Assembly (NCBI RefSeq): GCF_036500295.1
Contig: NZ_DASYCH010000075.1
Span: forward strand, 3,458-67,457
Direction: 5' to 3'
Source: Puia sp.
GTDB lineage: Bacteria > Bacteroidota > Bacteroidia > Chitinophagales > Chitinophagaceae
Length of the DNA stretch: 64,000 nt
Shown piece by piece: positions 4,174 through 38,093 of the stretch; within the stretch, counting starts at the first letter, position 1, and every line of letters begins with the position of its first letter. A model generated the notes under the pieces. The model made no database searches. It saw only the letters and a program-made list of their open reading frames with translations, and had not been told where the DNA came from. A program made the position numbers and the translations under genes.

Positions 4174-4206
4174 AAAAAAAGAGGCCGTCATAGAATAGAC
4201 GGCCTC
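4174..4206 (-). terminator. Intrinsic terminator after susD
   Basis: 9-bp stem GAGGCCGTC/GACGGCCTC followed by T7 on the minus strand. Confidence 0.8.
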
Positions 4207-4236: not shown

Positions 4237-6081
4237 TTAGTATCCGGGCAACTGTTTCAAATAGATCGTCCCTAGCGAATTCTCAGCATCGATCTGCTGC
4301 TGCGGGATCGGGAAGTATTCCGTCTTGCCTTCCGTAAAATGGACGTTCTTGTACATCGACGGATGCAGCGTAGCCTCTTTCGTCGCATAGGTGTTCAACA
4401 CCGTCGTCATGTAACCCGGCGTCTGCACCTGCCAGCGCTGCAGATCGAAGAACCGGTGCCCTTCCATGGCCAGCTCCAGCCGGCGCTCCATGATGATCGC
4501 ATACATGGCCGTCGTCTTACTGGTAAAATACGCGGCCGGGTAAGCCGCCACCTTGTAGCTGTCCGCGGGGACCGTCCCGTTCTTATAGGTATACGTACCC
4601 GGATCGAACGTTCCGTCCTTGTAGACCCACCAGGACGTCTTGGCGGCACGGGTGCGCACCTGGTTGACCAGGTTCTCCGCTTTCACCAGGTCAGGCGCCG
4701 ATCCCTGCACATAACACTCGGCATCCCACAGCAGGACATCGGCAAACCGGATCAGGTTCACGTTATTGGACGACAGCTCCACATTGGCCCAATAGCTTTC
4801 GTTATCGGACAGCGTACCCTGCTGCGCCTTGGCATACACATTCTTCTTGGCATTGAAGTGACCGTCATCTGCCGGGCTGCGGATCCAGCTGTCGCCGGGA
4901 TGCGGACCCCAGTCCAGATACGGAACTCCCGCCCTGCCGATCGCGATGTCGATTCGCGGATCCAGGTTGCCGACATAAGCGCCGTGGTCGGGATCGCTCA
5001 CCCCCAGACCCGCCTGCCAGGTATAGTTCGTCAAAGGAAGACCGGTGGCATCCGTCTTATAGGCATTGGCAAGGTCCTGGCTGGGATTGTCAAATCCGCA
5101 GCAGGCTCCGGGACCACCCCCATACGGGAAGTTCAGGGCATCCCCATAGTTACCGTTACCGTTGTAGCCCAGGGCATCGCTGGCCGAGCCGTCATTTACC
5201 GACATCTGAGCGGCAAATACACTTTCCGAACTATTTTTAGCATGTGCGTCGGGATCAAAATTTGTCGAGTAATTATCCAGCAGGGCATATTTTTCTCCCG
5301 TAGCCGTGACCCCATTGGTGATCAGATCATCCAGCAAAGGCCTCGCCTTGTCATACTGGCCCTCGTACATATACACCTTTGCGAGGAAAGCCTGCGCAGC
5401 CCATTTATTGGCCTGGCCCGGATTACCCTGTGTAGCGGGGAGATTGGTCATTGCATACTGAAAATCAGCTTCGATCTTCGGCCAGATCTCGATGAAATTC
5501 CCCGATCCATCGACGTTCGGCACATTGACATTATTGTTCGGCACCGTTATGTTCTCATCGACATAAGGCGGATAATGAAACACCTTGCGCAGCTCGAAAT
5601 GATAGAAGGCCCGCAGGAACAAAGCCTCTGCCTTGAACTCGACCGTGTCCGCCGCAGACATATCCTTCACCTGACGCATAACCCGGATAACGTCATTACT
5701 ACGCTGGATGGCATCGTACATAGCCGCCCATTTGTTGCCCGGATAACTGTTGGTCGGTGTGGTCGACCACTGCAGCATCGGCACGATATCCCCCTGGTCG
5801 GAAGGGGTCGACCCCTTATAAGCATTGTCAGCGCATACATCCCCATAGGTCCAGTTCGAGGCCGCAGATCCCCAGCCCGAATTGTTGAGTCCCTCCCCAT
5901 CGAGCCCGGAATAGGCGCCGACCAGGATAGCCGTCACACCATCCTTGGTAGTGACGATCTCGGGATTAAGTGTACCGATGGGCGGCTTGGTGAGAAATTT
6001 GTGTCCGCAGGCATTGAGCAGGATGACAAGCGTCAACACCCCCGGGATTATTAGCATTATTTTTTTCTGAAGCTTATTCAT
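4237..6081 (-). CDS. susD: RagB/SusD family nutrient uptake outer membrane lipoprotein
   Basis: Lipobox LLNAC; SusD motifs FLRAFYHFEL, IRFADVLLWDAE, ERRLELAMEGHRFFDLQRW, YFPIPQQQID; directly downstream of SusC. Symbol is family-level only. Confidence 0.95.
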   Translation of the reverse strand: MNKLQKKIMLIIPGVLTLVILLNACGHKFLTKPPIGTLNPEIVTTKDGVTAILVGAYSGLDGEGLNNSGWGSAASNWTYGDVCADNAYKGSTPSDQGDIVPMLQWSTTPTNSYPGNKWAAMYDAIQRSNDVIRVMRQVKDMSAADTVEFKAEALFLRAFYHFELRKVFHYPPYVDENITVPNNNVNVPNVDGSGNFIEIWPKIEADFQYAMTNLPATQGNPGQANKWAAQAFLAKVYMYEGQYDKARPLLDDLITNGVTATGEKYALLDNYSTNFDPDAHAKNSSESVFAAQMSVNDGSASDALGYNGNGNYGDALNFPYGGGPGACCGFDNPSQDLANAYKTDATGLPLTNYTWQAGLGVSDPDHGAYVGNLDPRIDIAIGRAGVPYLDWGPHPGDSWIRSPADDGHFNAKKNVYAKAQQGTLSDNESYWANVELSSNNVNLIRFADVLLWDAECYVQGSAPDLVKAENLVNQVRTRAAKTSWWVYKDGTFDPGTYTYKNGTVPADSYKVAAYPAAYFTSKTTAMYAIIMERRLELAMEGHRFFDLQRWQVQTPGYMTTVLNTYATKEATLHPSMYKNVHFTEGKTEYFPIPQQQIDAENSLGTIYLKQLPGY

Positions 6082-6119
6082 ACAGCATGTATTTTTTCTG
6101 GATGGTAATAGATCCTTTT

Positions 6120-9100
6120 TTAGAACGTGAGGCTCAAACCGAGTACATAGGTTTTTTGATTGGCGGGATAGTTACCCAGGTCGATCCCGAAGTTGGTCTG
6201 ATCGTCCAGGTTCGAACCTTGTAATTCCGGATCAAGACCCTTGTACGGCGTGACCGTGAACAGGTTGGCGCCCTGCAGATAGATCCGCAGTCTGTCGATA
6301 CCCACCTTCTTGAGAAGGTCCGGGTTGATCGTATAACCCACCGTAAGTGCCTTCAGGCGCAGGTACGAACCCTTCTCCACATACCAGGAATTGATGGCGT
6401 TCGTGCTGCTGAATCCCGGTGAACCGGAGATCTTCGGATACTTCGGATTGAGATTGGTCGGCGACCAGCTGTTCTGGATCAGATCGGCGCTGACGTTCCC
6501 CTGAAACACCTGTGGGAAGTCGATCCAGTATTTTACATAGTTGAAGATATCGTTACCGTAGCTGCCATAGAAGAAGGCGGCGAAATCGAATCCCTTGTAG
6601 GTAGCGGCCAGGTTCAGACCATAGGTCAGCTTGGGGTTGGGATCACCGATCCAGGTCCGGTCGCTGTCCGTGATCGCTCCGCTATGATTGACATCGGCAT
6701 ATTTGAAGAGACCCGGCGCGGCATCCTGCTGGGTGGGCGACTTGTCTACGTCATTTTGATCCTTGAAGTAACCATCCACCTTATAGCCAAAGAACTGGCC
6801 GACGGATGCTCCTTTCTGCACCCGGGTAAAGGCCCCGATACGGTTCGAACCGGCATTGGTGAAGTTGTCATAATATTTGATCCCGGCCGGCAAGTCGGTC
6901 ACCTTGCTCTTGTAATGAGTGAACGTACCGGTGATATCGAAATGGAAATCCCTGTTCACGGATCCATGATAAGTGATCGATCCGTCAAAACCGGTATTCT
7001 GGATATCCCCGAAGTTTACATACGGAGCCAACGCGCCGCCTGCCGTGTTAGGCAGCTGAGCGCGGTAAAGCAATCCGCTGACCGCCTTCTTGAACCAGTC
7101 CACCGTGATATCGAAATGCTTGATGCTGAGGTCGGCCCCGAAATCCGTCAGAATGTCCTGCTCCCAGGTGGTATTCGAGTTACCGATCTGGCTGGAATAG
7201 AAGCCCTGCATGCTGCTGGTGCTTGCCCCGGCCAGATCATAGTAACTCATGTACGCATTCTGGTTGAACAAATTGTAGGGGTTCGTATTGGGAACGTTCG
7301 AAAGACTGCCCGATTTACCCCAGCTGCCGCGCAGTTTCAGGTCATTGATCCAGGTGACATCCTTCATGAAGGCTTCCTGCGAAATGCGCCAGCCGGCCGA
7401 CACCGAGGGGAACCAACCAACCTGTTTGCCCGGCGCGAACAGCGACGAAGCATCCCGGCGCAACGTACCACTCAACAGGTATCTGTCCTTGAACGCATAA
7501 TCCAGCCGGCCGATATACGACCAGAGCGAGCTCTGGGCCGGCAGACCGCCGGTATAAGCATAGGTCAGGCCCGTATTGGCCTGGGAATTGGGTGCACCGC
7601 CATTCAACGTCCAAAAGTTAGGATCGGTGGAGAAATAGTTCGACCGGTTGGCCTGCAGCCCACGGTCATAGAATTTCTTGGACTCCGTACCGACCAGCAC
7701 CTTGATGCTATGGTCACCGAAGGTCTGGTTGTAATTCAACGTATTCGTCCAGATCATGGTGCTGTTAAAACCCGCACCTTCCGTATAGCTGTTGGCCGCC
7801 GTACTGCCCTCGGCATTCTCATACGGAGTATAAGAGAAGGAATTGTAATAGTAATTGTCCACCGTACCGCCGATGCTCGTCCGTGCCGTGAAATGATTGA
7901 GGAAATCTACTTCGGCGAAAACATTACCGTTTATCTGCCAGTCATTCCCCTTGTTGTTCTTCTTACGCTCCTGATCCGCAACAGGGTTATTGGAGTTGTT
8001 GACGGTGAACGAGTGTGTACCCGCATAGTTACCCATGACATCATATACAGGGATCAACGGCGGGATGCGATAAGCATAGGAAATGGCGTTCCCTTCATTC
8101 TGGTTGGTGATCTGTGGATTGTCCTTGTAGAAGATATAGGCATTCTCCCCGACCCGGATATGATTCTTTACATTGAACACCGTGTTGGCCCGTACCGCAT
8201 AGCGCTTGCTGTAGGTGTCGATCAGCGTACCCTCCTGGTTCAGATAGTTGAAGGAGAAATAGTAGCTTGACCTGTCCGTGCTTCCACTGGCCGAAATACT
8301 GTGCTGCTGCCAGGGCGCCGGTTTGAAGATCTCATGGAACCAGTCGGTGCCGATCTTATTGGTCTTCGTGATCTTGTTGTCCACGATATCATAGGTCGAA
8401 GGATTTTGCTGCGACGCATAATCCGGATTCACAAGCAACCCTAATGTCGGATCCGAAATGTAAGGAGTAGGCGTCAGATAATCCGGCAATGTGGGAGGTG
8501 CATAACTGCCGCCACCCTTGCCAAACCAAAGATTTCCCGGGGTATTCCCGTCATTATATGACTCCAGCCAAAGCACATCGGCGTAGTTCTGACTGCCGCC
8601 CAGGCGGAAACCATTCTTCAACGGCCGTTGTGTACCATAGAACCCATCATAGGTGATCGTGGCCTTGCCCTTACCGCGTTTCGTCGTCACGACGATAACC
8701 CCGTTGGATCCCTGCACTCCGTAGATAGCGACGGCGCCGGCATCCTTCAACACCTGGATCGATTCGATATCTGCCTGGTTGAGGTCATGCAGGCTTCCCT
8801 GCACCCCGTCGATGATCACCAGCGGATCGACACTCCCGATCGAGGTGATACCCCGGATCCGGATGTTACTTCCACCACCCGGCGCGCCCGAGTTGATGAC
8901 CGTCACCCCCGCAGCCTGTCCTTGCAGCAGGCTCTCCGTTGTCGATCCGGGCACACTCTTCATGTTCTTGATATCCACCACCGCAACGGCGCCGGTGATA
9001 TCTTTCTTCTTCTGCGCCGTGTAACCGGTGACGATCACGTCATTCAACGTGCTGTTGCTCTGAGCAAGGGAGATGTCTCCGATACTCGTCCTGCCCGCAA

Positions 9101-9377
9101 CAGGGATCTGAAAACCTTCAAACCCGATCGCTGTGATGATCAGCGTCGGGTTCGCATCGTTTCCTGGTAATTTTAGTGTGAATGTTCCGTCTGCCCCGGT
9201 GGATGTGGCAGTCTTAGTGCCTTTTACCTGTACCGTCGCACCCAGTACCGGTTGATTGTCCGACTTACCAATGACCCTTCCGGTGATCGTCGTCTGGGCA
9301 AAAAGACTACAGCTTATAAGCAAAGCAAGGACGACAAGGCCATAGCCTTTGCAAGCTCCGTTAGTTTTGGATGGCAT
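6120..9377 (-). CDS. susC: SusC/RagA family TonB-dependent outer membrane transporter
   Basis: Signal peptide, CarboxypepD_reg-like N-terminus, plug motif LKDAGAVAIYGVQGSNGVIVVTTKRG, C-terminal Phe. Symbol is family-level only. Confidence 0.95.
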   Translation of the reverse strand: MPSKTNGACKGYGLVVLALLISCSLFAQTTITGRVIGKSDNQPVLGATVQVKGTKTATSTGADGTFTLKLPGNDANPTLIITAIGFEGFQIPVAGRTSIGDISLAQSNSTLNDVIVTGYTAQKKKDITGAVAVVDIKNMKSVPGSTTESLLQGQAAGVTVINSGAPGGGSNIRIRGITSIGSVDPLVIIDGVQGSLHDLNQADIESIQVLKDAGAVAIYGVQGSNGVIVVTTKRGKGKATITYDGFYGTQRPLKNGFRLGGSQNYADVLWLESYNDGNTPGNLWFGKGGGSYAPPTLPDYLTPTPYISDPTLGLLVNPDYASQQNPSTYDIVDNKITKTNKIGTDWFHEIFKPAPWQQHSISASGSTDRSSYYFSFNYLNQEGTLIDTYSKRYAVRANTVFNVKNHIRVGENAYIFYKDNPQITNQNEGNAISYAYRIPPLIPVYDVMGNYAGTHSFTVNNSNNPVADQERKKNNKGNDWQINGNVFAEVDFLNHFTARTSIGGTVDNYYYNSFSYTPYENAEGSTAANSYTEGAGFNSTMIWTNTLNYNQTFGDHSIKVLVGTESKKFYDRGLQANRSNYFSTDPNFWTLNGGAPNSQANTGLTYAYTGGLPAQSSLWSYIGRLDYAFKDRYLLSGTLRRDASSLFAPGKQVGWFPSVSAGWRISQEAFMKDVTWINDLKLRGSWGKSGSLSNVPNTNPYNLFNQNAYMSYYDLAGASTSSMQGFYSSQIGNSNTTWEQDILTDFGADLSIKHFDITVDWFKKAVSGLLYRAQLPNTAGGALAPYVNFGDIQNTGFDGSITYHGSVNRDFHFDITGTFTHYKSKVTDLPAGIKYYDNFTNAGSNRIGAFTRVQKGASVGQFFGYKVDGYFKDQNDVDKSPTQQDAAPGLFKYADVNHSGAITDSDRTWIGDPNPKLTYGLNLAATYKGFDFAAFFYGSYGNDIFNYVKYWIDFPQVFQGNVSADLIQNSWSPTNLNPKYPKISGSPGFSSTNAINSWYVEKGSYLRLKALTVGYTINPDLLKKVGIDRLRIYLQGANLFTVTPYKGLDPELQGSNLDDQTNFGIDLGNYPANQKTYVLGLSLTF

Positions 9378-9479
9378 AACTTCGTGAGTAGTTTTTGAAT
9401 GGTTACTAAAATCTTCGTCGAAACTACACCCAATGTAAACAAAAAATTGATATTATTTTAACAAATCCTTGTACTATTT

Positions 9480-11042
9480 TTAATGTTCCTTTAACTTTTC
9501 TCTTGCTAGTCCCTTCAAAAGCAACAACGTCGGCCCCTTCTTCCAGTCGACCGTGTCCTTGCTCAAAGATGGCCCCACCGAAAAATTTCCCAGCACCAGA
9601 TCCATTCGCCCATCTCCATCCACATCCCCCGCATCCATCGTCAGCCACCGCCCGCTCCGTGCAGCCGGTACCGAATACGGAGTAAAGTTCAGGCCTCCCC
9701 GGTTCTCCAAATAGACAAAGCCCTCTTCCGGCCGCCGCCGGTAGTCGGCGAAATACGCGATCAACGCAATGTCCAGGTCCCCATCCCCGTCAAAATCCCG
9801 GGCAATCGCCTTGTAACATCCATTGATGGGGTAGAAGAACTTCCGGTAGAACCGGTTGTTCCCGTCATTTAAAAAGATATACACCCCATGATAAGGTTTC
9901 AGGACAACAGAATAGTCCGCATTGTCCCCACAGGTATAAATAATATCCGGGTGGCCATCCCGATTGATATCGGCCAGCTCGAACGAGGACGACCCATAAG
10001 CCGGCGGAAACCGCAACACCTCCCGCTCCTCGAACCGCCCCTGCCCCTTATTAGTATAGAGGAAGATCCCCTCTTCCCCCTGCGCGAACAACACCCAGAT
10101 ATCGGGACGCCCATCTTTATTGACATCCTGGACATACGCCTTTATCGCACCCGGCTGCGCCCGCAACACATGCCGGATAAATCCGCCCTTGCCGTTATCT
10201 TCCATCCAGGTCAATGCCCCTCGCAGATTGCCAAATTCACAAACCACATAGTCGGTCCGCCCATCCCCATTCATATCCGCCCCCGTCACCTGGACCGGCC
10301 GCGCAAGATCCCGCAGAAAAGGCATGCTGTCCATCCGCATCCGCCCCACCCCGTCAATATGCACCCTATAGGCATTACCAAGCCGGGCATTGTTGGGATT
10401 GATGTTACCGATATCACACGCAACCCCGGCCGTATCGCCAATCTGCATATCGACGATCCCGCCGCGGACAAACTGCGAGTCCAGTTTACTCCCCCGGGGA
10501 TCATACCGGGAGACCACACCCGGGAACACCCTGCCCCCAAGGATCTGATGCCTCTTCCCCATCGTGTCGATATGCACAAAACAGGTGACGGGAGCAGTTC
10601 CGTCCTTGATCCATACCGGTTGAAAAAGGGCCGGCCTGTCCCGGATAGGCACATGATCCGGCTGCGGCGGCATCGAATCCGGTGACATCCCGGAATAATA
10701 ATCGATGATGTCCTGCCATTCCCGGTCCGTCATCAACGGCCTCGACGGATAAGCCTCGGTCCCGACATACGGATCGAAAAGATAGGAAGGATACCGCTCC
10801 TTCTTGTATTGAAAGATACCCAGCCTCGGCCCCATGGCCGGCAAGACCCCCGCCTCCCAGGTCTTCTTGTTTAACAATTCAGGCACTGGTAACACATGAC
10901 ATGACTTACAGTAAAGCGACGCCAGCACACGGCCATGCCGGATGGAAGAATCCGCGATCACCAAACCGGCCGAATTATGCGCAGGGGATCGACAGGAGGA
11001 CAGAAACAGGCAAACGACTGTTATTTTTTGAAGTATCTTCAT
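9480..11042 (-). CDS. Lipoprotein with N-terminal single haem c domain and FG-GAP beta-propeller
   Basis: Start taken at MKILQKITVVCLFLSSC (lipobox); CKSCH haem motif with candidate axial Met (VLPAMG); five DxNxDGxxD/DxDGDGxxD repeats. Confidence 0.8.
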   Translation of the reverse strand: MKILQKITVVCLFLSSCRSPAHNSAGLVIADSSIRHGRVLASLYCKSCHVLPVPELLNKKTWEAGVLPAMGPRLGIFQYKKERYPSYLFDPYVGTEAYPSRPLMTDREWQDIIDYYSGMSPDSMPPQPDHVPIRDRPALFQPVWIKDGTAPVTCFVHIDTMGKRHQILGGRVFPGVVSRYDPRGSKLDSQFVRGGIVDMQIGDTAGVACDIGNINPNNARLGNAYRVHIDGVGRMRMDSMPFLRDLARPVQVTGADMNGDGRTDYVVCEFGNLRGALTWMEDNGKGGFIRHVLRAQPGAIKAYVQDVNKDGRPDIWVLFAQGEEGIFLYTNKGQGRFEEREVLRFPPAYGSSSFELADINRDGHPDIIYTCGDNADYSVVLKPYHGVYIFLNDGNNRFYRKFFYPINGCYKAIARDFDGDGDLDIALIAYFADYRRRPEEGFVYLENRGGLNFTPYSVPAARSGRWLTMDAGDVDGDGRMDLVLGNFSVGPSLSKDTVDWKKGPTLLLLKGLAREKLKEH

Positions 11043-11046
11043 TACT

Positions 11047-11346
11047 ATGAAAAAGATTGCCTGGTCGATAGCACTGCTCCTGGTCACCGCGGCAGGCTGC
11101 CAAAGGAAGAGGTCGGCAGCAGAAATAAAAGATCACCTCAAGGAAGCGATGGCGGAAAAACTGCAAAAACAACGGCCGCCCAATGCGCCTCCACTGCATT
11201 TTAAGATCATCGACGTGATCTACTTCGAAGATGTCAAATACTATGACTGTGAGTTTACGATACAACTCCAGCGAACCAATGGCTCCGATACCACCGGAAA
11301 AGTAAGAGGAAGAGTGTCGAAGGATTTTACCACCGTCCTCAGATAA
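11047..11346 (+). CDS. Small hypothetical lipoprotein
   Basis: 99 aa with clear lipoprotein signal MKKIAWSIALLLVTAAGC; followed by a terminator hairpin. Confidence 0.75.
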   Translation: MKKIAWSIALLLVTAAGCQRKRSAAEIKDHLKEAMAEKLQKQRPPNAPPLHFKIIDVIYFEDVKYYDCEFTIQLQRTNGSDTTGKVRGRVSKDFTTVLR

Positions 11347-11348
11347 AC

Positions 11349-11377
11349 CGGATGGCATTGTTAAACAATGCCATCCG
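11349..11377. terminator. Bidirectional terminator-like hairpin between convergent genes
   Basis: Perfect 13-bp inverted repeat CGGATGGCATTGT-TAA-ACAATGCCATCCG; U-tract weak. Confidence 0.65.
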
Positions 11378-11392
11378 TGATCATTTCATTCG

Positions 11393-11974
11393 CTAGCTGG
11401 TTGCCCAGGCCTTTTCACCCTTCTTATAATCGACACACCCCTCATACTTGCCCGGCACGGCGACATAACGCAAAGCCTTGGTCGCACCCGGCTCCGAAGT
11501 AAAGTACCCCCATAACGTTAATTCCTTCATCATGCGGAAGTAATGCGCCGGGTCGTCCTTCTTCTTCTTGTCGGTATACTCCTTTTGCTCCTTGTCCAGA
11601 TCGACCAGGAGGTTATGACGCTGCTCCGGCGTGCACTCCATAAAGGACTTGCCGTTCTTCGCCTTGCAGGCGGCTTCCAGCTTCAGCATGCCATCGAGAA
11701 ATATCTTCTGATCTGCCTCTGTATAGCAGTCCTTCACGATCCTGCCCATAAACTCACCCACCTTCGCTTCCTTGGCGCCCGGGGTATCCGTTGCCGGCAG
11801 GATGGTCTCCGAAACCTCGTCCAGGAAAGCGATATCATCGTTGGAGAAGTTGGTACCCGCTCCGCCGACACGCTTCTCCGGCGAATTGGTACATCCCGAC
11901 AGAAAGGCCTCGGCGCCGATAATGGTTCCACCCAGTAACAGCCCAACCCGGGCCAATGCGTCTCTTCTATTCAT
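11393..11974 (-). CDS. Gluconate 2-dehydrogenase subunit 3 family protein (Tat-exported small subunit of GMC dehydrogenase)
   Basis: Twin-arginine leader MNRRDAL; motifs LPATDTPGAKEAKVGEF and FRMMKELTLWGYFTSE; downstream of GMC genes. Confidence 0.9.
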   Translation of the reverse strand: MNRRDALARVGLLLGGTIIGAEAFLSGCTNSPEKRVGGAGTNFSNDDIAFLDEVSETILPATDTPGAKEAKVGEFMGRIVKDCYTEADQKIFLDGMLKLEAACKAKNGKSFMECTPEQRHNLLVDLDKEQKEYTDKKKKDDPAHYFRMMKELTLWGYFTSEPGATKALRYVAVPGKYEGCVDYKKGEKAWATS

Positions 11975-11990
11975 AATGTTGATTTTTTTT

Positions 11991-12077
11991 GTGCCCCGGG
12001 ATGGGTTTCACCGAAAATAACCCATCCCCGGTGCACGGCTTATGATGGGCCTTCGGCCGACGAGCCTGTGGCTCGTC
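11991..12077 (-). repeat. Three-hairpin intergenic element, copy A
   Basis: Minus strand GACGAGCC-ACA-GGCTCGTC, GGCC-GAA-GGCC, CATCATAAG spacer, long GGGGATGGGTT/AACCCATCCC hairpin; homologous to copies at 55035, 56469, 58869 and 59246. Confidence 0.9.
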
Positions 12078-13791: not shown

Positions 13792-13794
13792 GAC

Positions 13795-15474: not shown

Positions 15475-15502
15475 AATCGTTACTTATTGTTTTGATGTTT
15501 TA

Positions 15503-16399
15503 TTAAATATCGCAGATCTTCACCCCCGCCTCAAGAGAGTCCAGCTTATCCGCCTTCGCCGGTATGAATTCCTGCGCGACGAACCCCTTATAACCCGTAG
15601 CGGCGATCGCCCGCATGATCGCGGGGTAGAACAACTCCTGGGACTCGTCTATCTCATGACGTCCCGGCACGCCGCCGGTATGGTAATGCCCGAAGTATTG
15701 ATGGTTGTCCGTAATGGTCCGGATCACATCCCCTTCATCTATTTGCATGTGATAGATATCGTACAGTAATTTGAAGTTCTCCGACCCCACCCGCTTTACC
15801 AGCTCGATCCCCCATTTGGTGTTGTCGCACATCTGATCCTTGTGATTGATCTTGCTGTTCAGCAATTCCATATACACCGTGATACCCCGCTTCTCCGCAT
15901 CGCCCAATATATTCTTCAACCCGGTAACACAGTTCTTCAATCCCGTTTCGTCATCCATACCGGCACGATTGCCGCTGAAACAGATCACATTCTTATACCC
16001 CGCCGTGGTCATCATGGGCAGATATTTGGTGTAATTGTCGATCAGCTTGGCATGATACTCGGTGTGGTTCCAGCCTTCGGTCAGACTGATCTCCGCACCG
16101 TTACACATCGAAGAGTAAATGCCGTGCTTCTGCAGCGTTGCCCAATTCTCGGGCGGCACCAGGTCGATAGCACTAAAGCCTATCTGCTTGACGGCAACGC
16201 AAAGATCATCGAGCTGGATGTCGCCATAACACCAACGGCAGACAGAATGATTGATCGTACCCTTTAGTTTCAGTGCTTTCATATCGTGTGGCTTCTTATG
16301 TGACAGTAACAGGGAGACTGCGGCGCCGCCTGCACCAACGACCGCTGCCCCTCCAACGATCGTTTTGATGGCTTTACGCCTTGAAGATTTTTCCGCCAT
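15503..16399 (-). CDS. Tat-signal hydroxypyruvate isomerase / xylose-isomerase-like TIM barrel protein
   Basis: SRRKAIK twin-arginine leader; MELLNS, LLYDIYHMQI, HYHTGGVPGRHE, QEFIP metal-site motifs. Confidence 0.85.
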   Translation of the reverse strand: MAEKSSRRKAIKTIVGGAAVVGAGGAAVSLLLSHKKPHDMKALKLKGTINHSVCRWCYGDIQLDDLCVAVKQIGFSAIDLVPPENWATLQKHGIYSSMCNGAEISLTEGWNHTEYHAKLIDNYTKYLPMMTTAGYKNVICFSGNRAGMDDETGLKNCVTGLKNILGDAEKRGITVYMELLNSKINHKDQMCDNTKWGIELVKRVGSENFKLLYDIYHMQIDEGDVIRTITDNHQYFGHYHTGGVPGRHEIDESQELFYPAIMRAIAATGYKGFVAQEFIPAKADKLDSLEAGVKICDI

Positions 16400-16440
16400 A
16401 GGTCGGTCTGAATTTTATTAAGGAAGGAATTTACGAAATG

Positions 16441-17754
16441 TTATTGATTAACAGCCAGCGCCTCGAGTCCACCGGCCTTTTTCCGGTTGCGCATATAGAA
16501 CACGAGGATCGCAAAGGCAAGGATCAGCACCACGGGAATGACCATCGTGGTCTGCAGCACCTCCGGTCCTGCAGCCGACCTCGCCGCATCATAGGCCCTC
16601 GCCAGATCCGTCCCGGCCGGTGCGGAACGATAGGTATCCAGGCTGGCGCCCGCCGGCAGCTTACCGATCATCAGCCGGTCATAATACCCCCCCATGAACA
16701 TCATATAAATGGAAACCCCGAACATCCCCGCCCCACCCATCAGGTTCAACCCGACAGCACCCGTACGGGGCATGTTCTCCGCTACAAAGCCGATCATACA
16801 GGGCCAGAAGAACGCAACCCCCAACCCAAAGATCACGGCGCCGGCAAAAATGGCCGTTCCCGTTAAATGGATCAGCATATAGATGCCAAGAGCCGAAAAA
16901 ATAGCCGATAACAACAATACCCCCTGCGGCGCAAGCCGATGGACCACCGGACCCGCAAAAGCCCGGCCCAAAACCTGCATCGAAGCCACGAACGTAAGGA
17001 TCAACAGCGAATTCTGCGTCACCGTCCGGAAAAGCACATCGGTCCATTGATTGGTAAACAACTCCGTTATCGCAGTCCCGAACATACAGATGATCATAAA
17101 CAGGAATAGCGGATTGAACAGCGCCTTGTACATCTCATTGGTGCTGACACCGGCGGCAACCCGCTCGGTCACAGGGAATTCCAGCTTCGCAAACAGGTAA
17201 CCATAGATCAGCGTCGGGATCAGCATCACCGCTACCTCCACCTGGGAAACCCAGTAGGGCAACTCCGCGGCTCCCGCAGCCAGCATATTGTTCAGTCCAA
17301 AAACCACCAGCGTCCCGATCACGATGCCCGCGGGGAACCAAAGATGGAAATGGTTCAGTTTCGTAGTCTTGTTCTTTGTAAAAAGCGAGGCTACCAGCGG
17401 ATTACAAGCCGCCTCCACCGTCCCGTTGGCGATCCCGATCAGCAGGGTCGACAGAAAAAGGGTCCAGTATCCGTTCGCGAAGATCGTCAGCAGGATACCC
17501 GCAAGATGAAAGATAAAGGCGCCGACAAGCAGTTTCTTCATCCCGATGATATCGACGATGACCCCGCCGATGACAATTGCCAGCGGAAAACCCCAGAAAG
17601 CGGTCGCGGCGATAGTGCTCAGTTGGGAAGCATCAAGATGAAAATGAACGCCCTGCATGTTCAGGATACCGGCCCGGATGCCAAAAGAAAGAGAAGTTAC
17701 AAGCAATGCCAGACAGCTGGCCGTAAATAGCTTATTGGTGTGGATTTCACGCAT
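16441..17754 (-). CDS. MFS sugar transporter
   Basis: About 12 hydrophobic segments, GGVIVDIIGMKKLL MFS loop motif; start taken at MREIHTNK. Confidence 0.85.
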   Translation of the reverse strand: MREIHTNKLFTASCLALLVTSLSFGIRAGILNMQGVHFHLDASQLSTIAATAFWGFPLAIVIGGVIVDIIGMKKLLVGAFIFHLAGILLTIFANGYWTLFLSTLLIGIANGTVEAACNPLVASLFTKNKTTKLNHFHLWFPAGIVIGTLVVFGLNNMLAAGAAELPYWVSQVEVAVMLIPTLIYGYLFAKLEFPVTERVAAGVSTNEMYKALFNPLFLFMIICMFGTAITELFTNQWTDVLFRTVTQNSLLILTFVASMQVLGRAFAGPVVHRLAPQGVLLLSAIFSALGIYMLIHLTGTAIFAGAVIFGLGVAFFWPCMIGFVAENMPRTGAVGLNLMGGAGMFGVSIYMMFMGGYYDRLMIGKLPAGASLDTYRSAPAGTDLARAYDAARSAAGPEVLQTTMVIPVVLILAFAILVFYMRNRKKAGGLEALAVNQ

Positions 17755-17870
17755 GGCAAGATCAGTTTTTAATTTTGCGACGGGGCGATTTGCGCCTGCC
17801 ACCAGCACTTTTTGTCAACTGGACACAATGTAAATGTAATTTTTTATTTTTAATAAATGTATCCTAAAAT

Positions 17871-17884
17871 TGCAATCGGCTTCA
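17871..17884. promoter_or_regulatory. Candidate LacI-family operator 1
   Basis: TGCAATCGGCTTCA, one mismatch to TGnAAnCGnTTnCA; overlaps near-consensus -7 element TAAAATTG (17865-17872). Confidence 0.5.
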
Positions 17885-17894
17885 CACACACATT

Positions 17895-17908
17895 TGCAAT
17901 CAATTTCA
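17895..17908. promoter_or_regulatory. Candidate LacI-family operator 2
   Basis: TGCAATCAATTTCA, one mismatch to consensus, immediately before the ATG at 17910. Confidence 0.5.
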
Positions 17909-17909
17909 T

Positions 17910-19067
17910 ATGAACAGAAAACTAAGAATGGGAATGATCGGCGGCGGAAAGAACGCCTTCATAGGTGCCGTTCATCGCATTGCGGCCAATATGGACGGAC
18001 TCATCGAGCTGGTTTGCGGAGCCTTTAGCAGCCATCCCGATAACGCACGCGCGTCCGGAAGAGACCTCTTCCTCCCGGAAGACCGCATCTATCTCTCCTA
18101 CGAAGAGATGATGGACAGGGAAAGCAAGCTCCCCGCGGATAAAAGGATGGACTTCGTAGTCATCGTAACGCCCAACCATCTGCACTTCGCCCCGGCGATG
18201 CTCGCCCTCGAAAAAGGTTTTCATGTAGTGCTCGACAAACCGATGACGTTTTCGCTCGACGAGGCAAAACAACTAAAGAAAAAAGTGGAAGACACCGGTC
18301 TTCTCCTCTGTCTGACCCATACCTATTCCGGCTATCCCATGGTCAAACAGGCCCGCCAGATGATAAAGGAAGGGGTCTTCGGAAAGATCAGAAAGGTCTA
18401 CGTCGAATACCCCCAGGGCTGGCTCAGCCGGCTCTCCGAAAAGGACGGTAGCAAACAGGCCGAATGGCGCACCGACCCGAAACGCTCCGGCAAAAGCGGC
18501 GCCATGGGCGACATCGGAACACACGCCGCCCACCTCGCCGAATATATCAGCGGTTTGAAAATAAGCCAGCTCTGCGCCGATCTCAACATCATGGTCCCGG
18601 GCCGCGCCCTCGATGACGACGGCGGCGTACTCCTGCGCTTCGACAACGGCGCCACTGGCGTCCTCTTCGCCTCACAGGTCGCAGCCGGCGAAGAGAACGC
18701 ACTGAAGATCCGCATCTACGGCGAGAACGGCGGCATCGAATGGGCACAGCAGGAACCCAACACCCTGTTGGTAAAATGGCTCGACCAGCCCACACAGGTC
18801 TATCGCGCCGGCATGGGCTACCTCGGCTCCTATGCCAAATTCAATACCCGGACCCCCGGCGGGCATCCCGAAGGCTATCTCGAAGCATTCGGCAATCTCT
18901 ACCGCAATTTTGCCGTCACCCTCATGGCCCGCATCGACGGCGCCACCCCGCCAAAAGAAGCCCTCGACTTCCCCTCGGCGGAAGACGGGGTTCGCGGCAT
19001 GGCCTTTATCGACAACCTCATCCGCAGCAACGAAAGCAAGGAGAAATGGACACCATTCACCATCTGA
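17910..19067 (+). CDS. Gfo/Idh/MocA family NAD(P) oxidoreductase (cytoplasmic)
   Basis: GMIGGG Rossmann start, IVTPNHLH, LDKPMT, GAMGDIGTH. Confidence 0.9.
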   Translation: MNRKLRMGMIGGGKNAFIGAVHRIAANMDGLIELVCGAFSSHPDNARASGRDLFLPEDRIYLSYEEMMDRESKLPADKRMDFVVIVTPNHLHFAPAMLALEKGFHVVLDKPMTFSLDEAKQLKKKVEDTGLLLCLTHTYSGYPMVKQARQMIKEGVFGKIRKVYVEYPQGWLSRLSEKDGSKQAEWRTDPKRSGKSGAMGDIGTHAAHLAEYISGLKISQLCADLNIMVPGRALDDDGGVLLRFDNGATGVLFASQVAAGEENALKIRIYGENGGIEWAQQEPNTLLVKWLDQPTQVYRAGMGYLGSYAKFNTRTPGGHPEGYLEAFGNLYRNFAVTLMARIDGATPPKEALDFPSAEDGVRGMAFIDNLIRSNESKEKWTPFTI

Positions 19068-19100
19068 TAAACACAATGCTTCTCAAAAAATAATTGTCAT

Positions 19101-20156
19101 ATGCAAACATTAAAAGGACCCGGCATCTTCCTCGCCCAGTTCATGGGTGACCAGCCCCCCTTCAACTCCCTCGCCTCCATCTGCAAATGGGCGGCTTCTC
19201 TCGGCTACATCGGCGTTCAGATCCCCTCCTGGGATAGCCGCCTTATCGATCTGCAAAAGGCCGCAGAAAGCAAAACCTACGCCGACGAGATAAAAGGGAT
19301 CGTACAAAACGCCGGTCTACAGATTACCGAACTGTCCACCCACCTCCAGGGACAACTCGTAGCCGTCCACCCCGCATATGACAGTCTCTTTGACGGCTTC
19401 GCCCCCGCCACCGTACATGGCAACCCGAAAGCCCGCCAGGAATGGGCCGTCCAGCAATTGAGATACGCGGCAAAAGCTTCGCAGAATCTCGGCCTCAATG
19501 CCCATGCAACGTTCAGCGGCGCCCTTCTCTGGCCCACGGTATATCCCTGGCCCCAGCGCCCCGCCGGTCTCGTGGAAACAGGCTTCAAAGAACTGGCGGC
19601 CCGCTGGCTGCCCATCCTCGACGAGTTCGATCGGCACGGCGTCGATCTCTGCTACGAGATCCATCCCGGCGAAGACCTCCACGACGGGATCACCTACGAG
19701 ATATTTCTTAAACATACCAACAACCACCCCCGCGCCTGCCTGCTCTACGATCCCTCGCATTTCGTCCTGCAATGCCTCAACTACCTGGAATATATCGACC
19801 ACTACCACGAACGGATCCGCATGTTCCACGTAAAGGACGCAGAGTTCAACCCCACCGGTAAACAGGGCGTCTACGGCGGCTACCAGGGATGGGTCGAACG
19901 CGCAGGCCGCTTCCGCTCCCTCGGCGACGGCCAGGTCGACTTCAAAGGTATCTTCAGCAAACTGACGCAATACAACTATAAAGGCTGGGCCGTACTGGAA
20001 TGGGAATGCGCCCTCAAACACCCGGAAGACGGCGCAAAAGAAGGCGCACCATTCATAAAAGAACACATCATCCGGGTCACCGAAAAAGCCTTCGACGACT
20101 TCGCCGGCACCGGCAGCGACGAAAAATTTAACCGTTCTGTGCTCGGGTTGAAATAA
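19101..20156 (+). CDS. Sugar phosphate isomerase/epimerase family TIM barrel protein (cytoplasmic)
   Basis: YEIHPGEDLHDG, LYDPSHF, FHVKDAE, VLEWEC metal ligands. Confidence 0.9.
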   Translation: MQTLKGPGIFLAQFMGDQPPFNSLASICKWAASLGYIGVQIPSWDSRLIDLQKAAESKTYADEIKGIVQNAGLQITELSTHLQGQLVAVHPAYDSLFDGFAPATVHGNPKARQEWAVQQLRYAAKASQNLGLNAHATFSGALLWPTVYPWPQRPAGLVETGFKELAARWLPILDEFDRHGVDLCYEIHPGEDLHDGITYEIFLKHTNNHPRACLLYDPSHFVLQCLNYLEYIDHYHERIRMFHVKDAEFNPTGKQGVYGGYQGWVERAGRFRSLGDGQVDFKGIFSKLTQYNYKGWAVLEWECALKHPEDGAKEGAPFIKEHIIRVTEKAFDDFAGTGSDEKFNRSVLGLK

Positions 20157-20192
20157 ACCTGCCTAACTTCGGCTCACCAAAGAAACTAAATC

Positions 20193-20603
20193 ATGACTAA
20201 ACAGCTAGTAGCCGCCCTCTCCTGCGCCATCCTCATGGCCGCCTGCGGCGGTTCAGGAGACAAGAAAGCAAGTGATGCAACGGCAAAAGACAGCGCCACC
20301 ACGCCCTCCAGTTCGACAACCACAAACGCGGCCGCGGATAAAGCCCTCGATCTCATCGGCGCCAGCGACTGCACCACCTGCCATCGGCTGAACAAGAATG
20401 TCGGCGGCGCATCCATCGGCCCGGCCTATAGCGACGTCGCAGCAAAATACAACCCCGCGGCAGATTCCACCGTCGACCGGCTCGTAAAAAAAGTCATCAC
20501 AGGCGGCAGCGGCATCTGGGGCACCGTTCCCATGACCCCGCACCCAACCCTGAAACCGGAAGATGTAAAGACCATGGTTACCTACATCCTGACCTTAAAA
20601 TAA
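20193..20603 (+). CDS. Class I cytochrome c lipoprotein (c551/c552-like)
   Basis: Lipobox LMAAC; CTTCH; GSGIWGTVPMTPH with axial Met. Confidence 0.9.
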   Translation: MTKQLVAALSCAILMAACGGSGDKKASDATAKDSATTPSSSTTTNAAADKALDLIGASDCTTCHRLNKNVGGASIGPAYSDVAAKYNPAADSTVDRLVKKVITGGSGIWGTVPMTPHPTLKPEDVKTMVTYILTLK

Positions 20604-20631
20604 TAGTCGAAAAAACAACAGGTTCACCGAT

Positions 20632-21390
20632 ATGAAAAGATTAGCACGTCACAGGCTTGGCATTCTCCTGCTCGGCCTCACCATCTGCACCATCGTCTGC
20701 AGCTACTGCGACCGCTCCCACTCCGACCGCTTTGCCAAACCGAGCGTGCTCATCTTTTGCAAGACCAATGGCTATCATCACGCCAGCATCAGCACCGGCA
20801 TCGCCGCCATCACTAAACTGGGACAGGAAAATGGCTTTGCCGTCGACAGCACCACCGACTCAACGCGGTTCCGGGAAAAGAACCTGAAAAAATACAAGAC
20901 ACTCATCTTCCTCAGCCCCACCGGCACCGTATTCGGCCCCGAAGAAGAAAAAGCCCTCCAGGCCTATATCCACCAGGGCGGCGGATTCGTCGGCATCCAC
21001 GCCGCCGCGGACTGCGAATACAACTGGCAATGGTATGGAGATCTGGTAGGCGGCTACTTCAAGTCCCACCCCCGCCCACAGGAAGCAAAATTCATCATCG
21101 TCGACAAAGACCACCCCGCTACACAGGGATTACCCAACCCCTGGACGCATTTCGACGAACTGTACAACTACAAGTATTATGCGCCGGACATCAAGGTCCT
21201 CATAAAGATCGACGAGACTTCCTATAGCGGCGGCGAGAACGGCGAAAACCATCCCATGGCCTGGTATCACCCCTTCGAAGGCGGCAGATCCTTCTATACC
21301 GCATTGGGCCACACCGACGAAGCCTGGTCTGACCCGATGTTCCTGCACCATGTGCTGGGCGGCATCCAATATGCAATGGGGAAAAAATAG
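20632..21390 (+). CDS. ThuA-like (trehalose utilisation) domain protein, exported
   Basis: Signal peptide; FCKTNGYHHASI, GGGFVGIHAA, GRSFYTALGH. Confidence 0.85.
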   Translation: MKRLARHRLGILLLGLTICTIVCSYCDRSHSDRFAKPSVLIFCKTNGYHHASISTGIAAITKLGQENGFAVDSTTDSTRFREKNLKKYKTLIFLSPTGTVFGPEEEKALQAYIHQGGGFVGIHAAADCEYNWQWYGDLVGGYFKSHPRPQEAKFIIVDKDHPATQGLPNPWTHFDELYNYKYYAPDIKVLIKIDETSYSGGENGENHPMAWYHPFEGGRSFYTALGHTDEAWSDPMFLHHVLGGIQYAMGKK

Positions 21391-22242
21391 CTAAAATCTC
21401 TTCACATAAGAGAGCCCGAACGACCCGTTATTGTAGGTCGGCATGACCACATTCACCACCTCGGGGTTCTTATTCTTGCCAAACAGCTGCTGCACCTTGG
21501 GATACAGCCAATAGGCGATTCGCGTAGACGCAATACCCACACCCGCACCCGCTATCACATCACTCATCCAGTGCTTGTCATTGTACATCCTTAACATCCC
21601 CGTGGCCGTCGCCATCGCATAACCCGCGATACCATACCAGGGCGAGACATCCTTGTACTCCAACCGCATGAACTCCGCCCCCACAAATGCCTCCGCCGTG
21701 TGCCCCGACGGAAACGAAGCCCGATCCGACCCATCAGGCCGCATCTCATGCGACCAGCCCTTCACCGAGAAAACCGTTCCGTTTGCAATAACATTCGCCA
21801 TCAGCAGGATGATCGTCCTGTCCTTGAAATTATGCGCTCCATGAATACCCGCCGCATTCAACGCATACACCGATAAGGTAGGCGCAAACATCAGATAATT
21901 ATCCAGGTGAAAAGGCTTGTGTGGATTGTCCTCCCAGACCTGTTCCTTCACCTCCCCGTTCACCTTTTGCAACGTTCCGTTATGCACCGCCGTCGCGCCA
22001 TACGCGATCATCGCCGCAGGCAGAAAAAGACTATGAAAGGGAAAGGGCTGTTTGTACGTGGCCGCCAGATGCCAGTCGATCTTATGGGGCACCGTGTCGC
22101 GCGCCGATCCCCAGGTCGGGGTAATGCTCACTTCCTTGATCGTATCCGGGACGACTGACCCTTCATTCTCTCTTAAATTCTGTGCCGACGCCAATTGGCA
22201 CACCCAGGTCAGGCATACTGCTACGGTTACGAGTTTAATCAT
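21391..22242 (-). CDS. PAP2 family phosphatase
   Basis: KxxxxxxRP (KGWSHEMRP), SFPSGHT, RMYNDKHWMSDV; start taken at MIKLVTV. Confidence 0.88.
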   Translation of the reverse strand: MIKLVTVAVCLTWVCQLASAQNLRENEGSVVPDTIKEVSITPTWGSARDTVPHKIDWHLAATYKQPFPFHSLFLPAAMIAYGATAVHNGTLQKVNGEVKEQVWEDNPHKPFHLDNYLMFAPTLSVYALNAAGIHGAHNFKDRTIILLMANVIANGTVFSVKGWSHEMRPDGSDRASFPSGHTAEAFVGAEFMRLEYKDVSPWYGIAGYAMATATGMLRMYNDKHWMSDVIAGAGVGIASTRIAYWLYPKVQQLFGKNKNPEVVNVVMPTYNNGSFGLSYVKRF

Positions 22243-22503
22243 AGTGATGTATTCTTTAATGTTTAGTTTTGAACGGCATTCCATGTCTCGGGGAACTTGG
22301 CTATCCCTGCACCTCTCTTCAACGACAAAAATCAAAAGAAATTTTGGAAAATCCGGGCAAAAGGGTGCTTTTGCGACACCGCGCGCACGGAATTAACACC
22401 GATTTTGGTTAAGAAACTTAACAGAAAATCGTTTTAGCTAGCCTTTCTGTAAACATACTGGCGACATTCTGAAGCCATCGGCCTTTGAATGCACCCATCA
22501 TCC

Positions 22504-23835
22504 CTATATCGTCGGCAACTTATAACCGTTGTGATATTCCTTCATTAGGTATTGCTGATTGACCCCCTCATCGGTGAACTTCCCCGCCGCCTTGTCCCAG
22601 GCAAGCCGCTGCCCGCTGCGCAGACTGATATTTCCCATCTGGGCAACCGTAGCCACCAGCGAACCATCCTCGATCGAACAATGCAGTTCCTCCATCTTAC
22701 GGTTACGCACAACGCCAATGAAATTAGCCATATGATTGTCCAGGCCGTTGTCGGATGACTTCACAAAAGGCTTGCTCACCTTGTTCTTGCTTTGCCGTTC
22801 TTCGATCACCTCCCATCCGCCCCGGCTAAGCACCAGCGTACCGTTATTGCCGATATACGCGATGCCGTGATCCCGGCCATAACTGCCGTTGTCGATGCCC
22901 ATCGCATGGTCCCACACCAGGTTAAACCCATCAAACTCATAAAGGGTCGTCAGCGTATCCGGCGTTTCTTCATACAGGTCGGGATAAGCGAATTTGCCTC
23001 CCAGCGCCGCGATCGTCTTCGGATATTGCGCCTTCATCCCCAACAACCCATAATCCAGCAGATGCACACCCCAATCCGTCATCAGGCCGCCGGCATAGTC
23101 CCAAAACCAACGGAAGTTGAAATGGAACCGGCTCGCATTGAACGTCCTCGTAGGCGCCGGGCCCAGCCACATCGCATAGTCCACGCCCGCGGGCGGCGCC
23201 GTATCCGGCACGACCGGTCCGGGTTTCATCCAACCCTGATAACACCATACTTTCACCGTCCGGATATTCCCCAGCTGTCCCGACTGTACAAAATCCACCG
23301 CATCCTTGAAATGCTGCTGGCTGCGTTGCCACTGCCCGCCTTGCACCACCCTGTTGTATTTCTTCTGCGCAGCCATCATCGCCCGGCATTCCCCAATGGA
23401 ATTGCCAACCGGCTTCTCCACATAGACATCCTTGCCCGCCATACAGGCCTCCATCATGATCAGGGCATGCCAATGATCGGGCGTACCGATGATCACCACG
23501 TCGATATCCTTTTGCTCCAACAGCTTCCGGTAGTCCCCATAGGTCTTGATCTTACCCGTATCCACCTTCTTGGACTCCAGTTCCTTCATCCGCTTGTCAA
23601 GGACGTTCCTGTCGACATCACAAAGCGCCACGACATTGACACCCGGCAACTTGATCGCAGCCGAAAGATCGGCCCAACCCATGCCGTTCAGGCCAATCGC
23701 CCCGACATTGATCTGGTCGGAAGGTGAAACACCGCTAAAAGAAGAAAAAGGATGGGAACTAAAAGCCGAAAGAAGGATCGCTCCACCCGCGAGGGCCGAG
23801 CCTTGCTGAAGAAAAGTACGCCGGGAATTTTTCAT
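22504..23835 (-). CDS. Tat-exported Gfo/Idh/MocA family oxidoreductase
   Basis: NSRRTFLQ twin-arginine leader; GTPDHWH, VYVEKP, DWGVHLLD. Confidence 0.9.
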   Translation of the reverse strand: MKNSRRTFLQQGSALAGGAILLSAFSSHPFSSFSGVSPSDQINVGAIGLNGMGWADLSAAIKLPGVNVVALCDVDRNVLDKRMKELESKKVDTGKIKTYGDYRKLLEQKDIDVVIIGTPDHWHALIMMEACMAGKDVYVEKPVGNSIGECRAMMAAQKKYNRVVQGGQWQRSQQHFKDAVDFVQSGQLGNIRTVKVWCYQGWMKPGPVVPDTAPPAGVDYAMWLGPAPTRTFNASRFHFNFRWFWDYAGGLMTDWGVHLLDYGLLGMKAQYPKTIAALGGKFAYPDLYEETPDTLTTLYEFDGFNLVWDHAMGIDNGSYGRDHGIAYIGNNGTLVLSRGGWEVIEERQSKNKVSKPFVKSSDNGLDNHMANFIGVVRNRKMEELHCSIEDGSLVATVAQMGNISLRSGQRLAWDKAAGKFTDEGVNQQYLMKEYHNGYKLPTI

Positions 23836-23883
23836 ATACAAGCCGCGCAGATTTGCTACGCAGCTTCAATATACAAAAGATTC

Positions 23884-38091: not shown

Positions 38092-38093
38092 TC

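Follow-up and report, generated by a model that had tools for sequence, protein, structure and literature searches.

What does a SusC/SusD outer-membrane importer do when no glycoside hydrolase (GH) lies beside it and its neighbors are oxidoreductases? We addressed this question for a locus in a 64,000-nucleotide stretch of the genome of a Puia sp. of the Chitinophagaceae (RefSeq assembly GCF_036500295.1, contig NZ_DASYCH010000075.1, positions 3,458 to 67,457), referred to here as the window, in whose numbering all coordinates are given. A preliminary description of this DNA had proposed that outer-membrane capture feeds an oxidative rather than a hydrolytic route of glycoside cleavage. Gene families were assigned from a listing of open reading frames (ORFs) and Pfam scans, and cellular compartments were read from N-termini. 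Pfam places the SusC/SusD, GMC, small-subunit, TIM-barrel, Gfo/Idh/MocA, ThuA, and MFS genes of that description exactly where it had put them. Its statement that no GH lies near SusC/SusD (SusCD) also holds: no GH or polysaccharide lyase (PL) Pfam family occurs in any ORF of at least about 100 amino acids between 446 and 28252, and the locus has the adjacent SusC and SusD of a polysaccharide utilization locus (PUL) and lacks, by Pfam, the co-located GH or PL. As the best explanation of the whole, we lean slightly toward two adjacent units, with SusCD feeding the dehydrogenases of its neighbor. The pathway itself is already known, and the attachment of SusCD to it is limited to one clade. Breakdown of glycosides through 3-keto intermediates has been worked out recently and is thought to be widespread but under-recognized.

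Bitter et al. (2023; PMC10628242) described an operon of GlycDH (a GMC flavoenzyme coexpressed with a "TAT-pathway signal protein"), AtOGE (a TIM-barrel O-glycoside beta-eliminase), the hydratase AtHYD, and a Gfo reductase, four enzymes that together convert 3-keto-phlorizin to the aglycone and glucose. GlycDH needs its twin-arginine translocation (Tat) partner and oxidizes O- and C-glucosides at C3; its activity with ferricyanide exceeds that with O2 at least 100-fold (PMC10628242). Judged by sequence, the enzyme block of the window is an orthologue of this characterized Rhizobium/Agrobacterium pathway. Two tandem genes on the minus strand encode GlycDH-type, FAD-dependent large subunits, GMC1 (13795..15474) and GMC2 (12076..13791; Pfam GMC_oxred_N/C), which are 69% and 65% identical, respectively, to GlycDH of Rhizobium sp. 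GIN611 over the full length. The FAD-binding motif (GxGxxG) and the catalytic His/Asn motifs near the C-terminus are retained: GSGISGG, GIHEMGTARMG, and NPSL align in all three proteins and in paralogues on two other contigs of the same genome (C97 and C72). The reference sequences of GlycDH, in which optical character recognition left a few gaps, and of AtOGE came from Supplementary Table 6 of PMC10628242. By their likeness to GlycDH, GMC1 and GMC2 are predicted to be C3-specific glycoside dehydrogenases; their nearest relatives of solved structure are respiratory fructose and glucose dehydrogenases (E of about 1e-35). GMC matches on Rhizobium and Agrobacterium plasmids were rejected as GlycDH, since at 25 to 32% identity they are different GMC enzymes.

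Neither GMC protein has a signal peptide. The signal lies on the Gluconate_2-dh3 small subunit encoded just downstream (11393..11974, minus strand; PF13618, 1.2e-42), whose N-terminus, MNRRDALARVGLLLGG...LSGC, combines a twin-arginine signal containing the motif RRDAL with a lipobox. Dehydrogenases of this kind export their folded FAD subunit by "hitchhiking" on a small subunit that bears the Tat signal. The pattern of signals fits this established scheme, because the Tat signal is on the small subunit and GMC1 and GMC2 carry none, as expected for the GlycDH/LacA type. The number of tandem GMC copies per module varies from 1 to 5 with one small subunit (L059, L061, L066, L071, L084, L102; G001:C3:458893-468025), which suggests diversification of substrate range on a single Tat carrier.

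The steps after cleavage can be assigned in the same way. TIM2 (19101..20156, plus strand), a cytoplasmic protein with no signal, resembles the 2-hydroxy-3-keto-glucal hydratase of PDB 8RO4 over its full length (E of 1.3e-179, 71% global identity) and lies next to a Gfo reductase gene; 8RO4 is AtHYD of Agrobacterium tumefaciens, the same sequence as in Supplementary Table 6 of PMC10628242. That neighbor, Gfo1 (17910..19067, plus strand; assigned to Gfo/Idh/MocA by Pfam), is likewise cytoplasmic and free of a signal, and its best solved relative is an oxidoreductase of Sinorhizobium (PDB 3v5n, E of 1e-115). A Rhizobium plasmid carries a Gfo gene 49% identical to Gfo1 directly after its hydratase gene, and the reductase-hydratase pair has been characterized in A. 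tumefaciens (PMC10628242), so Gfo1 would be the 3-keto-glucose reductase. Because GMC1/GMC2, TIM2, and Gfo1 match characterized enzymes, the oxidation, hydration, and reduction steps are assignable by orthology, which bears out the earlier assignment of these families to an oxidation-elimination-hydration-reduction route (69%/65% to GlycDH, 71% to AtHYD). We consider it highly probable that the enzyme block belongs to this known pathway family. The AtHYD-type hydratase is unusually conserved: its versions in Chitinophagaceae, in Hymenobacter, and on plasmids or chromids (358 plasmid records) of Azospirillum, Rhizobium, Sinorhizobium, and Phyllobacterium share 72 to 81% identity.

Transport and electron transfer have candidates within the block. 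The MFS transporter (16441..17808, minus strand; MFS_1, start codon uncertain) would import the cleaved keto-sugar across the inner membrane; in relatives its place is taken by a different MFS (43 to 45% identity) or by a NupG-type permease. A monoheme cytochrome c lipoprotein (20193..20603, plus strand; Pfam Cytochrom_C, with a CTTCH motif and a lipobox) is the likely electron acceptor of the dehydrogenase. Next to it is a ThuA-family protein with a signal peptide (20632..21390, plus strand; 7.7e-76, 255 bits), and nearby, on the opposite strand, Gfo2 (22504..23841, minus strand), a Gfo/Idh/MocA oxidoreductase with the Tat motif SRRTFLQ. Gfo2 matches PDB 8tdf/8tdh (E of 1e-35) in its N-terminal half only and reaches 177.7 bits against NCBIfam BT_2158_fam, below the cutoff of 750, so it appears to be a distant relative of the BT2158 glycoside 3-dehydrogenases. 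In a ThuAB trehalose 3-dehydrogenase, the partner of ThuA is ThuB, likewise a Gfo/Idh/MocA protein. Paralogues of Gfo2 stand beside DUF1080 genes, as BT2158/BT2157-like pairs, at at least four other loci (C2, C36, C53, C108), and the genome is rich in parts of the 3-keto pathway. An AT-rich motif, TTAAAAATAAAAAATTACATTTA, is near-invariant across genera upstream of the MFS/TIM1/GMC operon, at about 17830 to 17860 in the window (also in L051, L059, L061, L062, L066, L067, L069, L073, L079, L080, L100), and could serve as a promoter or as a site for a regulator.

The elimination step is where the block departs from a complete pathway. The preliminary description had called the gene set full, which is an overstatement because both recognized lyase types, AtOGE-like TIM barrels and DUF1080/3keto-disac_hyd proteins, are missing from the window; most related loci have them. 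Genes for AtOGE-like proteins (23 to 31% identity) directly follow the small subunit in most non-Puia loci, and a gene of the DUF1080/3keto-disac_hyd family, to which BT2157 and AL2 belong and which is described as a 3-keto-alpha-glucoside lyase/hydratase, adjoins the cytochrome c gene in at least 50 of 80 loci, that of Flavitalea flava included. The closest relatives of the window locus (L051-54, L078, L031-34) likewise have neither, so the module of the window is a reduced version without both recognized lyases. Elsewhere in the genome there are 6 OGE-like and about 13 DUF1080 genes.

Within the window, the sole candidate for the lyase step is TIM1 (15503..16399, minus strand; AP_endonuc_2), a xylose-isomerase-like TIM barrel resembling hydroxypyruvate isomerases and ketose epimerases and bearing the Tat motif SRRKAIK. 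Its gene adjoins a GMC gene in nearly all related loci. TIM1 is not an AtOGE orthologue: BLASTP found no detectable similarity to AtOGE (E of 0.63), and neither phmmer nor a 19-sequence profile run against the PDB recovered 8BVK, 7DNN, 7EXB, 7EXZ (C-glycoside deglycosidases), or 8tct (AL1), even at E up to 10. The nearest solved relatives are 3ngf, YgbM (hydroxypyruvate-isomerase-like), and ketose 3-epimerases, with a weak match to the 3-keto-glucoside 4-epimerase YcjR. Ketose 3-epimerases are also what Foldseek matched with an AlphaFold (AF2) model, whose predicted local distance difference test score of 64 makes it too weak to discriminate. Because E178, D214, H240, and E277 are invariant in 19 TIM1 homologues, TIM1 is probably an active metal enzyme working beside a carbonyl; the same metal site is also common to epimerases and isomerases.

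On the other side of the locus, SusC is a TonB-dependent transporter without the STN signaling domain (6120..9377, minus strand; CarbopepD_reg_2 and Plug), followed by a SusD-family lipoprotein with a lipobox (4237..6081, minus strand; SusD_RagB 2.8e-33, SusD-like_3 1.7e-19). The pair is bracketed by two FG-GAP proteins on the same strand that, together with a small ORF discussed below, were not in the earlier list of genes. FGA (446..4030) is a CRTAC1-like lipoprotein of 1,194 amino acids in which two groups of FG-GAP repeats flank a UnbV_ASPIC segment (FG-GAP_3 2.7e-71, UnbV_ASPIC 3.7e-17; lipobox at the N-terminus); its only solved relative is human CRTAC1 (9etn). A terminator-like GC-rich hairpin followed by seven T residues (4181..4206, minus strand) lies between susD and FGA. 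FG5 (9480..11042) is a lipoprotein of 520 amino acids with a single N-terminal heme c site, CKSCH, and an FG-GAP beta-propeller (FG-GAP_3 5e-35). The preliminary description counted two cytochrome c proteins: the one at 20193..20603 is clear, and the second is FG5, in which Pfam calls no cytochrome domain.

All 10 orthologues of FG5 retain its CXXCH motif, as do all 4 more distant homologues, from Ferruginibacter, Flavisolibacter, and a metagenome. Because distant homologues adjoin GH2 or GH16 genes with no GMC nearby, FG5 is better seen as a general PUL accessory than as a dedicated GlycDH partner, and its candidacy as the dedicated electron acceptor of GlycDH is weakened. A metagenome scan for FG5 gave only three close relatives, all short. 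The wider family of heme-c FG-GAP lipoproteins, with a conserved YCQSCH...GVLPxMGPRLG, has more than 4,000 matches, is abundant in Chitinophagaceae, and occurs beside GH2/GH16 (L153, L154; P0176, P0195, P0207, P0234); it appears to be an undescribed family of PUL accessories. Our literature search returned nothing relevant on UnbV/ASPIC or GMC proteins together with SusC/SusD, or on a role of FGA in PULs.

Does this importer serve the enzyme block? Synteny extends the argument beyond one genome. The core module, in the order cytochrome c-TIM2-Gfo1<>MFS-TIM1-GMC (1 to 5 copies)-small subunit, recurs in about 60 of 80 loci from Chitinophagaceae and Sphingobacteriaceae. Every Puia/Flavitalea-clade locus with sufficient flanking sequence has SusC after the small subunit, in the same orientation: 5 of 5 orthologous loci of the genus, 10 genome-contig loci, Flavitalea flava, and metagenome contigs from other samples. 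The SusCD unit of this clade occupies the place, just downstream of the enzyme module, that an OGE-like lyase gene fills in other genera. The adjacency persists although SusC and SusD, which range from 42 to 80% identity, drop to 42 to 65% and come in two flavors, and neither a move of FG5 to the opposite side, nor an exchange of the MFS, nor variation in the outer flanks has broken it. The earlier condition that a lack of synteny in relatives would count against cofunction is therefore answered by the clade, where SusCD comes after the small subunit at each locus sampled.

Two further arrangements bring SusCD together with GlycDH-type genes. On contig C97 of the same genome (L047:12977-19944), a GlycDH paralogue (69% identity to GlycDH, 77% to GMC2) sits between two FGA genes, with a gap of 2 nucleotides on one side and an overlap of 38 nucleotides on the other, and its orthologues in 6 of 8 loci of relatives stand in arrays of SusC-SusD-FGA-multiheme cytochrome c (about 400 amino acids)-(X)-GMC. 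In these arrays (L134-L138, L140), X is a protein of 629 amino acids, several CXXCH cytochrome families occur, and a GH35/42-like DUF5597 protein follows in one relative. The annotation of the Hymenobacter volaticus plasmid NZ_CP095062 shows, on one strand, kinase-SusC-SusD-GH65-thioredoxin-like-GMC-small subunit-permease-Gfo1-TIM2-cytochrome c-TIM1-TIM-DUF1080-TIM; its TIM2 is 81% identical to that of the window, and its SusC is unrelated (27% identity). The C97-type loci and the Hymenobacter plasmid suggest a genuine tendency for SusCD uptake to be located beside this oxidative chemistry. Pinibacter was rejected as a further case, as its SusC belongs to a separate unit with an extracytoplasmic function (ECF) sigma factor, FecR, and an STN domain beyond an unrelated gene. 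The proposal that SusCD and the enzymes function together thus gains synteny, the C97-type loci, and the Hymenobacter plasmid over the proximity in one genome on which it first rested, and it is still a matter of inference.

Taken together, these features suggest the following scheme. The enzyme unit (11393-21390 and 22504-23841) is very probably the form that the GlycDH-type "3-keto" pathway for glycosides takes in Bacteroidota. The other unit (446-11042) is a SusC/SusD importer accompanied, as is usual for it, by FG-GAP proteins, in this case FGA and the heme-c protein FG5. The most likely role of the importer is to supply the periplasmic dehydrogenases with an oligosaccharide or glycoside taken up through the outer membrane. 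GMC1 and GMC2 would reach the periplasm on the Tat-signal lipoprotein small subunit, which would also anchor them to the membrane, and there oxidize the glycosyl C3 and pass electrons to cytochrome c, an electron path that we infer from the gene content. The 3-keto-glycoside would then be cleaved by beta-elimination, for which the candidates are Tat-exported TIM1, spontaneous elimination where the leaving group is good, and OGE-like or DUF1080 paralogues encoded elsewhere in the genome. MFS would import the keto-sugar product, and in the cytoplasm TIM2 would convert 2-hydroxy-3-keto-glucal to 3-keto-glucose, which Gfo1 would reduce to glucose. Compartments in this scheme follow the signal peptides, and the three enzyme steps of oxidation, hydration, and reduction follow orthology. 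As for the coupling of SusCD to the enzyme module, we put it at about even odds, if anything slightly more likely than not.

What weighs against the coupling also supports its main rival, in which the two units are neighbors by descent: SusCD, FGA, and FG5 would take up some other substrate independently, and the GlycDH module would handle small glycosides or disaccharides that cross porins, its own MFS being sufficient. The SusCD side is a separate transcription unit, because it is set apart by a hairpin, by an ORF on the other strand, and by an AT-rich block conserved ahead of susC. The terminator reported earlier at 11349 is real, a hairpin of 13 perfect pairs with a weak T tract (11349..11377) between convergent genes, and is likely bidirectional because a plus-strand ORF for a small lipoprotein of 99 amino acids (11047..11346) runs toward it between the dehydrogenase operon and the SusCD side; independent gene callers found ORFs of 88 to 107 amino acids at the same spot in relatives. 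The promoter-like, AT-rich block upstream of susC is kept in relatives regardless of which gene precedes it. LacI-operator-like sites mark the enzyme promoters only, two in the divergent promoter region (17871..17908; TGCAATCGGCTTCA and TGCAATCAATTTCA, at 17871 and 17895) and a third at 23884-23897, with none upstream of susC, FG5, or FGA and no LacI gene within the window. Operator evidence is weak in any case because the count of such motifs in the window, 5 against 3.7 expected, is not above chance. A shared LacI-type operator (TGCAATCGATTGCA-like) as a means of coregulation was rejected, the apparent sites before susC in relatives being coding sequence, either the lipobox of the opposite-strand small lipoprotein or the C-terminus of FG5. 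A transcript search found the sequence only in the source soil DNA run and in no RNA runs. Distribution tells the same way: the module is complete without SusCD, and with its own MFS, in most other genera (Sediminibacterium, Ferruginibacter, Hanamia, Pinibacter, Mucilaginibacter), and FG5 homologues keep company with GH2/GH16 in place of GMC. Of the 12 FGA paralogous genes in the genome, about 8 are at loci that adjoin SusC-like genes with no GMC nearby, so FGA-SusCD is a recurrent unit in its own right, and in relatives the enzyme block is absent from two FGA-SusCD loci of the window type (L037, L045). SusCD belongs first to the FG-GAP/ASPIC unit. The SusCD-linked cases, Hymenobacter excepted, are all confined to a single GTDB genus, so common descent could account for a large part of the synteny. 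Against mere descent stand the adjacency and orientation, which have outlasted SusCD divergence, the relocation of FG5, and changes of flank, and the independent joining of SusCD with GlycDH-type genes in the second locus type and on the Hymenobacter plasmid. On balance, we find neighborhood by descent rather unlikely.

The lyase gap raises a different objection, which also counts against a cleavage pathway fed by SusCD: there is no AtOGE-like TIM barrel among the ORFs of the window and no tblastn or Pfam match to DUF1080/3keto-disac_hyd (PF06439) in it. A respiratory or detoxifying periplasmic oxidase, one that draws electrons from sugars or inactivates plant or antibiotic glycosides instead of cleaving them, would explain a possible loss of lyase genes from the window and its nearest relatives, and it accords with the respiratory dehydrogenases that head the structural matches of the GMC proteins and with the presence of a cytochrome c partner. 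Such an enzyme would leave little for the hydratase (71% to AtHYD) and the reductase to do, yet both, sensible only after cleavage, have been retained together with an importer, and the 6 OGE-like and roughly 13 DUF1080 genes of the genome could act in trans. We consider this alternative very improbable and retain the reading of two adjacent units in which SusCD feeds the dehydrogenases.

These alternatives differ in what they would mean. If the units are merely neighbors, the locus is just one more example of a known pathway. If SusCD truly feeds a GlycDH-type module, PUL prediction based on carbohydrate-active enzymes overlooks a class of loci, abundant soil Bacteroidota gain a respiration-linked opening of alpha-, beta-, thio-, or C-glycosides, and the common FG-GAP/ASPIC ("CRTAC1-like," "VCBS") and heme-c FG-GAP lipoproteins of Bacteroidota acquire a first functional handle. 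The broader SusCD-FG-GAP loci with cytochromes and GlycDH paralogues are the more unusual lead. As a speculative and doubtful extension, soil Chitinophagaceae might possess "redox PULs," in which GlycDH-type dehydrogenases and c-type cytochromes take the part of GHs alongside SusCD, FG-GAP/ASPIC, and heme-c FG-GAP lipoproteins, glycans are opened oxidatively with electrons going to the respiratory chain, and the FG-GAP proteins might supply the lyase step or an electron relay.

Several other genes surround the two units. A PAP2-family membrane protein assigned by Pfam (21391..22335, minus strand) is kept beside the enzyme block in close relatives. Two lipoproteins of 193 and 218 amino acids with no Pfam match (23939-25271) adjoin Gfo2 in close relatives as well as here. 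Directly downstream of FGA are genes for an ECF sigma factor, a FecR anti-sigma factor, and an STN-type SusC (window 1-312 and the part of the contig, C75, before the window), which are another uptake unit. Farther away are a sulfatase (32409-33977) and a group comprising an STN-type TonB-dependent receptor, two tandem DUF4249 lipoproteins, and an MG2-domain protein (35320-42767).

How does the locus compare with systems already described? With the A. tumefaciens/Rhizobium sp. GIN611 pathway (PMC10628242; 8BVK, 8RO4), it shares GMC with a Tat partner, the hydratase, the adjacent Gfo reductase, and the order of oxidation, elimination, hydration, and reduction. However, it lacks an AtOGE orthologue, has an MFS in place of the ABC transporter, is attached to SusCD and FG-GAP proteins, and adds Tat-exported TIM1, a second GMC copy, cytochrome c, ThuA, and Tat-exported Gfo2. 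The BT2156-2160/AL1-5 system of Bacteroides thetaiotaomicron (Liu et al. 2021, PMC8121099; Nasseri et al., bioRxiv 10.1101/2024.03.25.586180) likewise proceeds through periplasmic C3 oxidation, 1,2-elimination, and hydration, and Gfo2, as a Tat-exported Gfo/Idh/MocA protein, resembles BT2158/8tdf in its N-terminal half. The oxidant in the window would be an FAD-GMC enzyme linked to cytochrome c, whereas that of B. thetaiotaomicron is an enzyme with tightly bound NAD; the window also has neither DUF1080 nor an AL1-type lyase, and Gfo2 falls far under the BT_2158_fam cutoff. Caulobacter LacABC and the three-subunit flavoprotein dehydrogenases (FAD-GDH, 6a2u; fructose dehydrogenase, 7w2j) have the same large GMC subunit, small Tat "hitchhiker," and cytochrome c, but their cytochrome is a triheme membrane subunit and that of the window a small monoheme lipoprotein, and identity to the solved structures is low (E of about 1e-35). 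Canonical PULs share the SusC/SusD pair, adjoining lipoproteins, and carbohydrate-active enzymes, whereas in the window Pfam finds no GH or PL, the neighbors are oxidoreductases, and the partners of SusCD are FG-GAP/ASPIC and heme-c FG-GAP lipoproteins. In the Hymenobacter volaticus locus (NZ_CP095062), SusC-SusD likewise shares a strand with GMC, small subunit, permease, Gfo1, TIM2, cytochrome c, and TIM1 genes, which come after it; the locus differs in its GH65, DUF1080, and two further TIM barrels, in having no FG-GAP proteins, and in its unrelated SusC.

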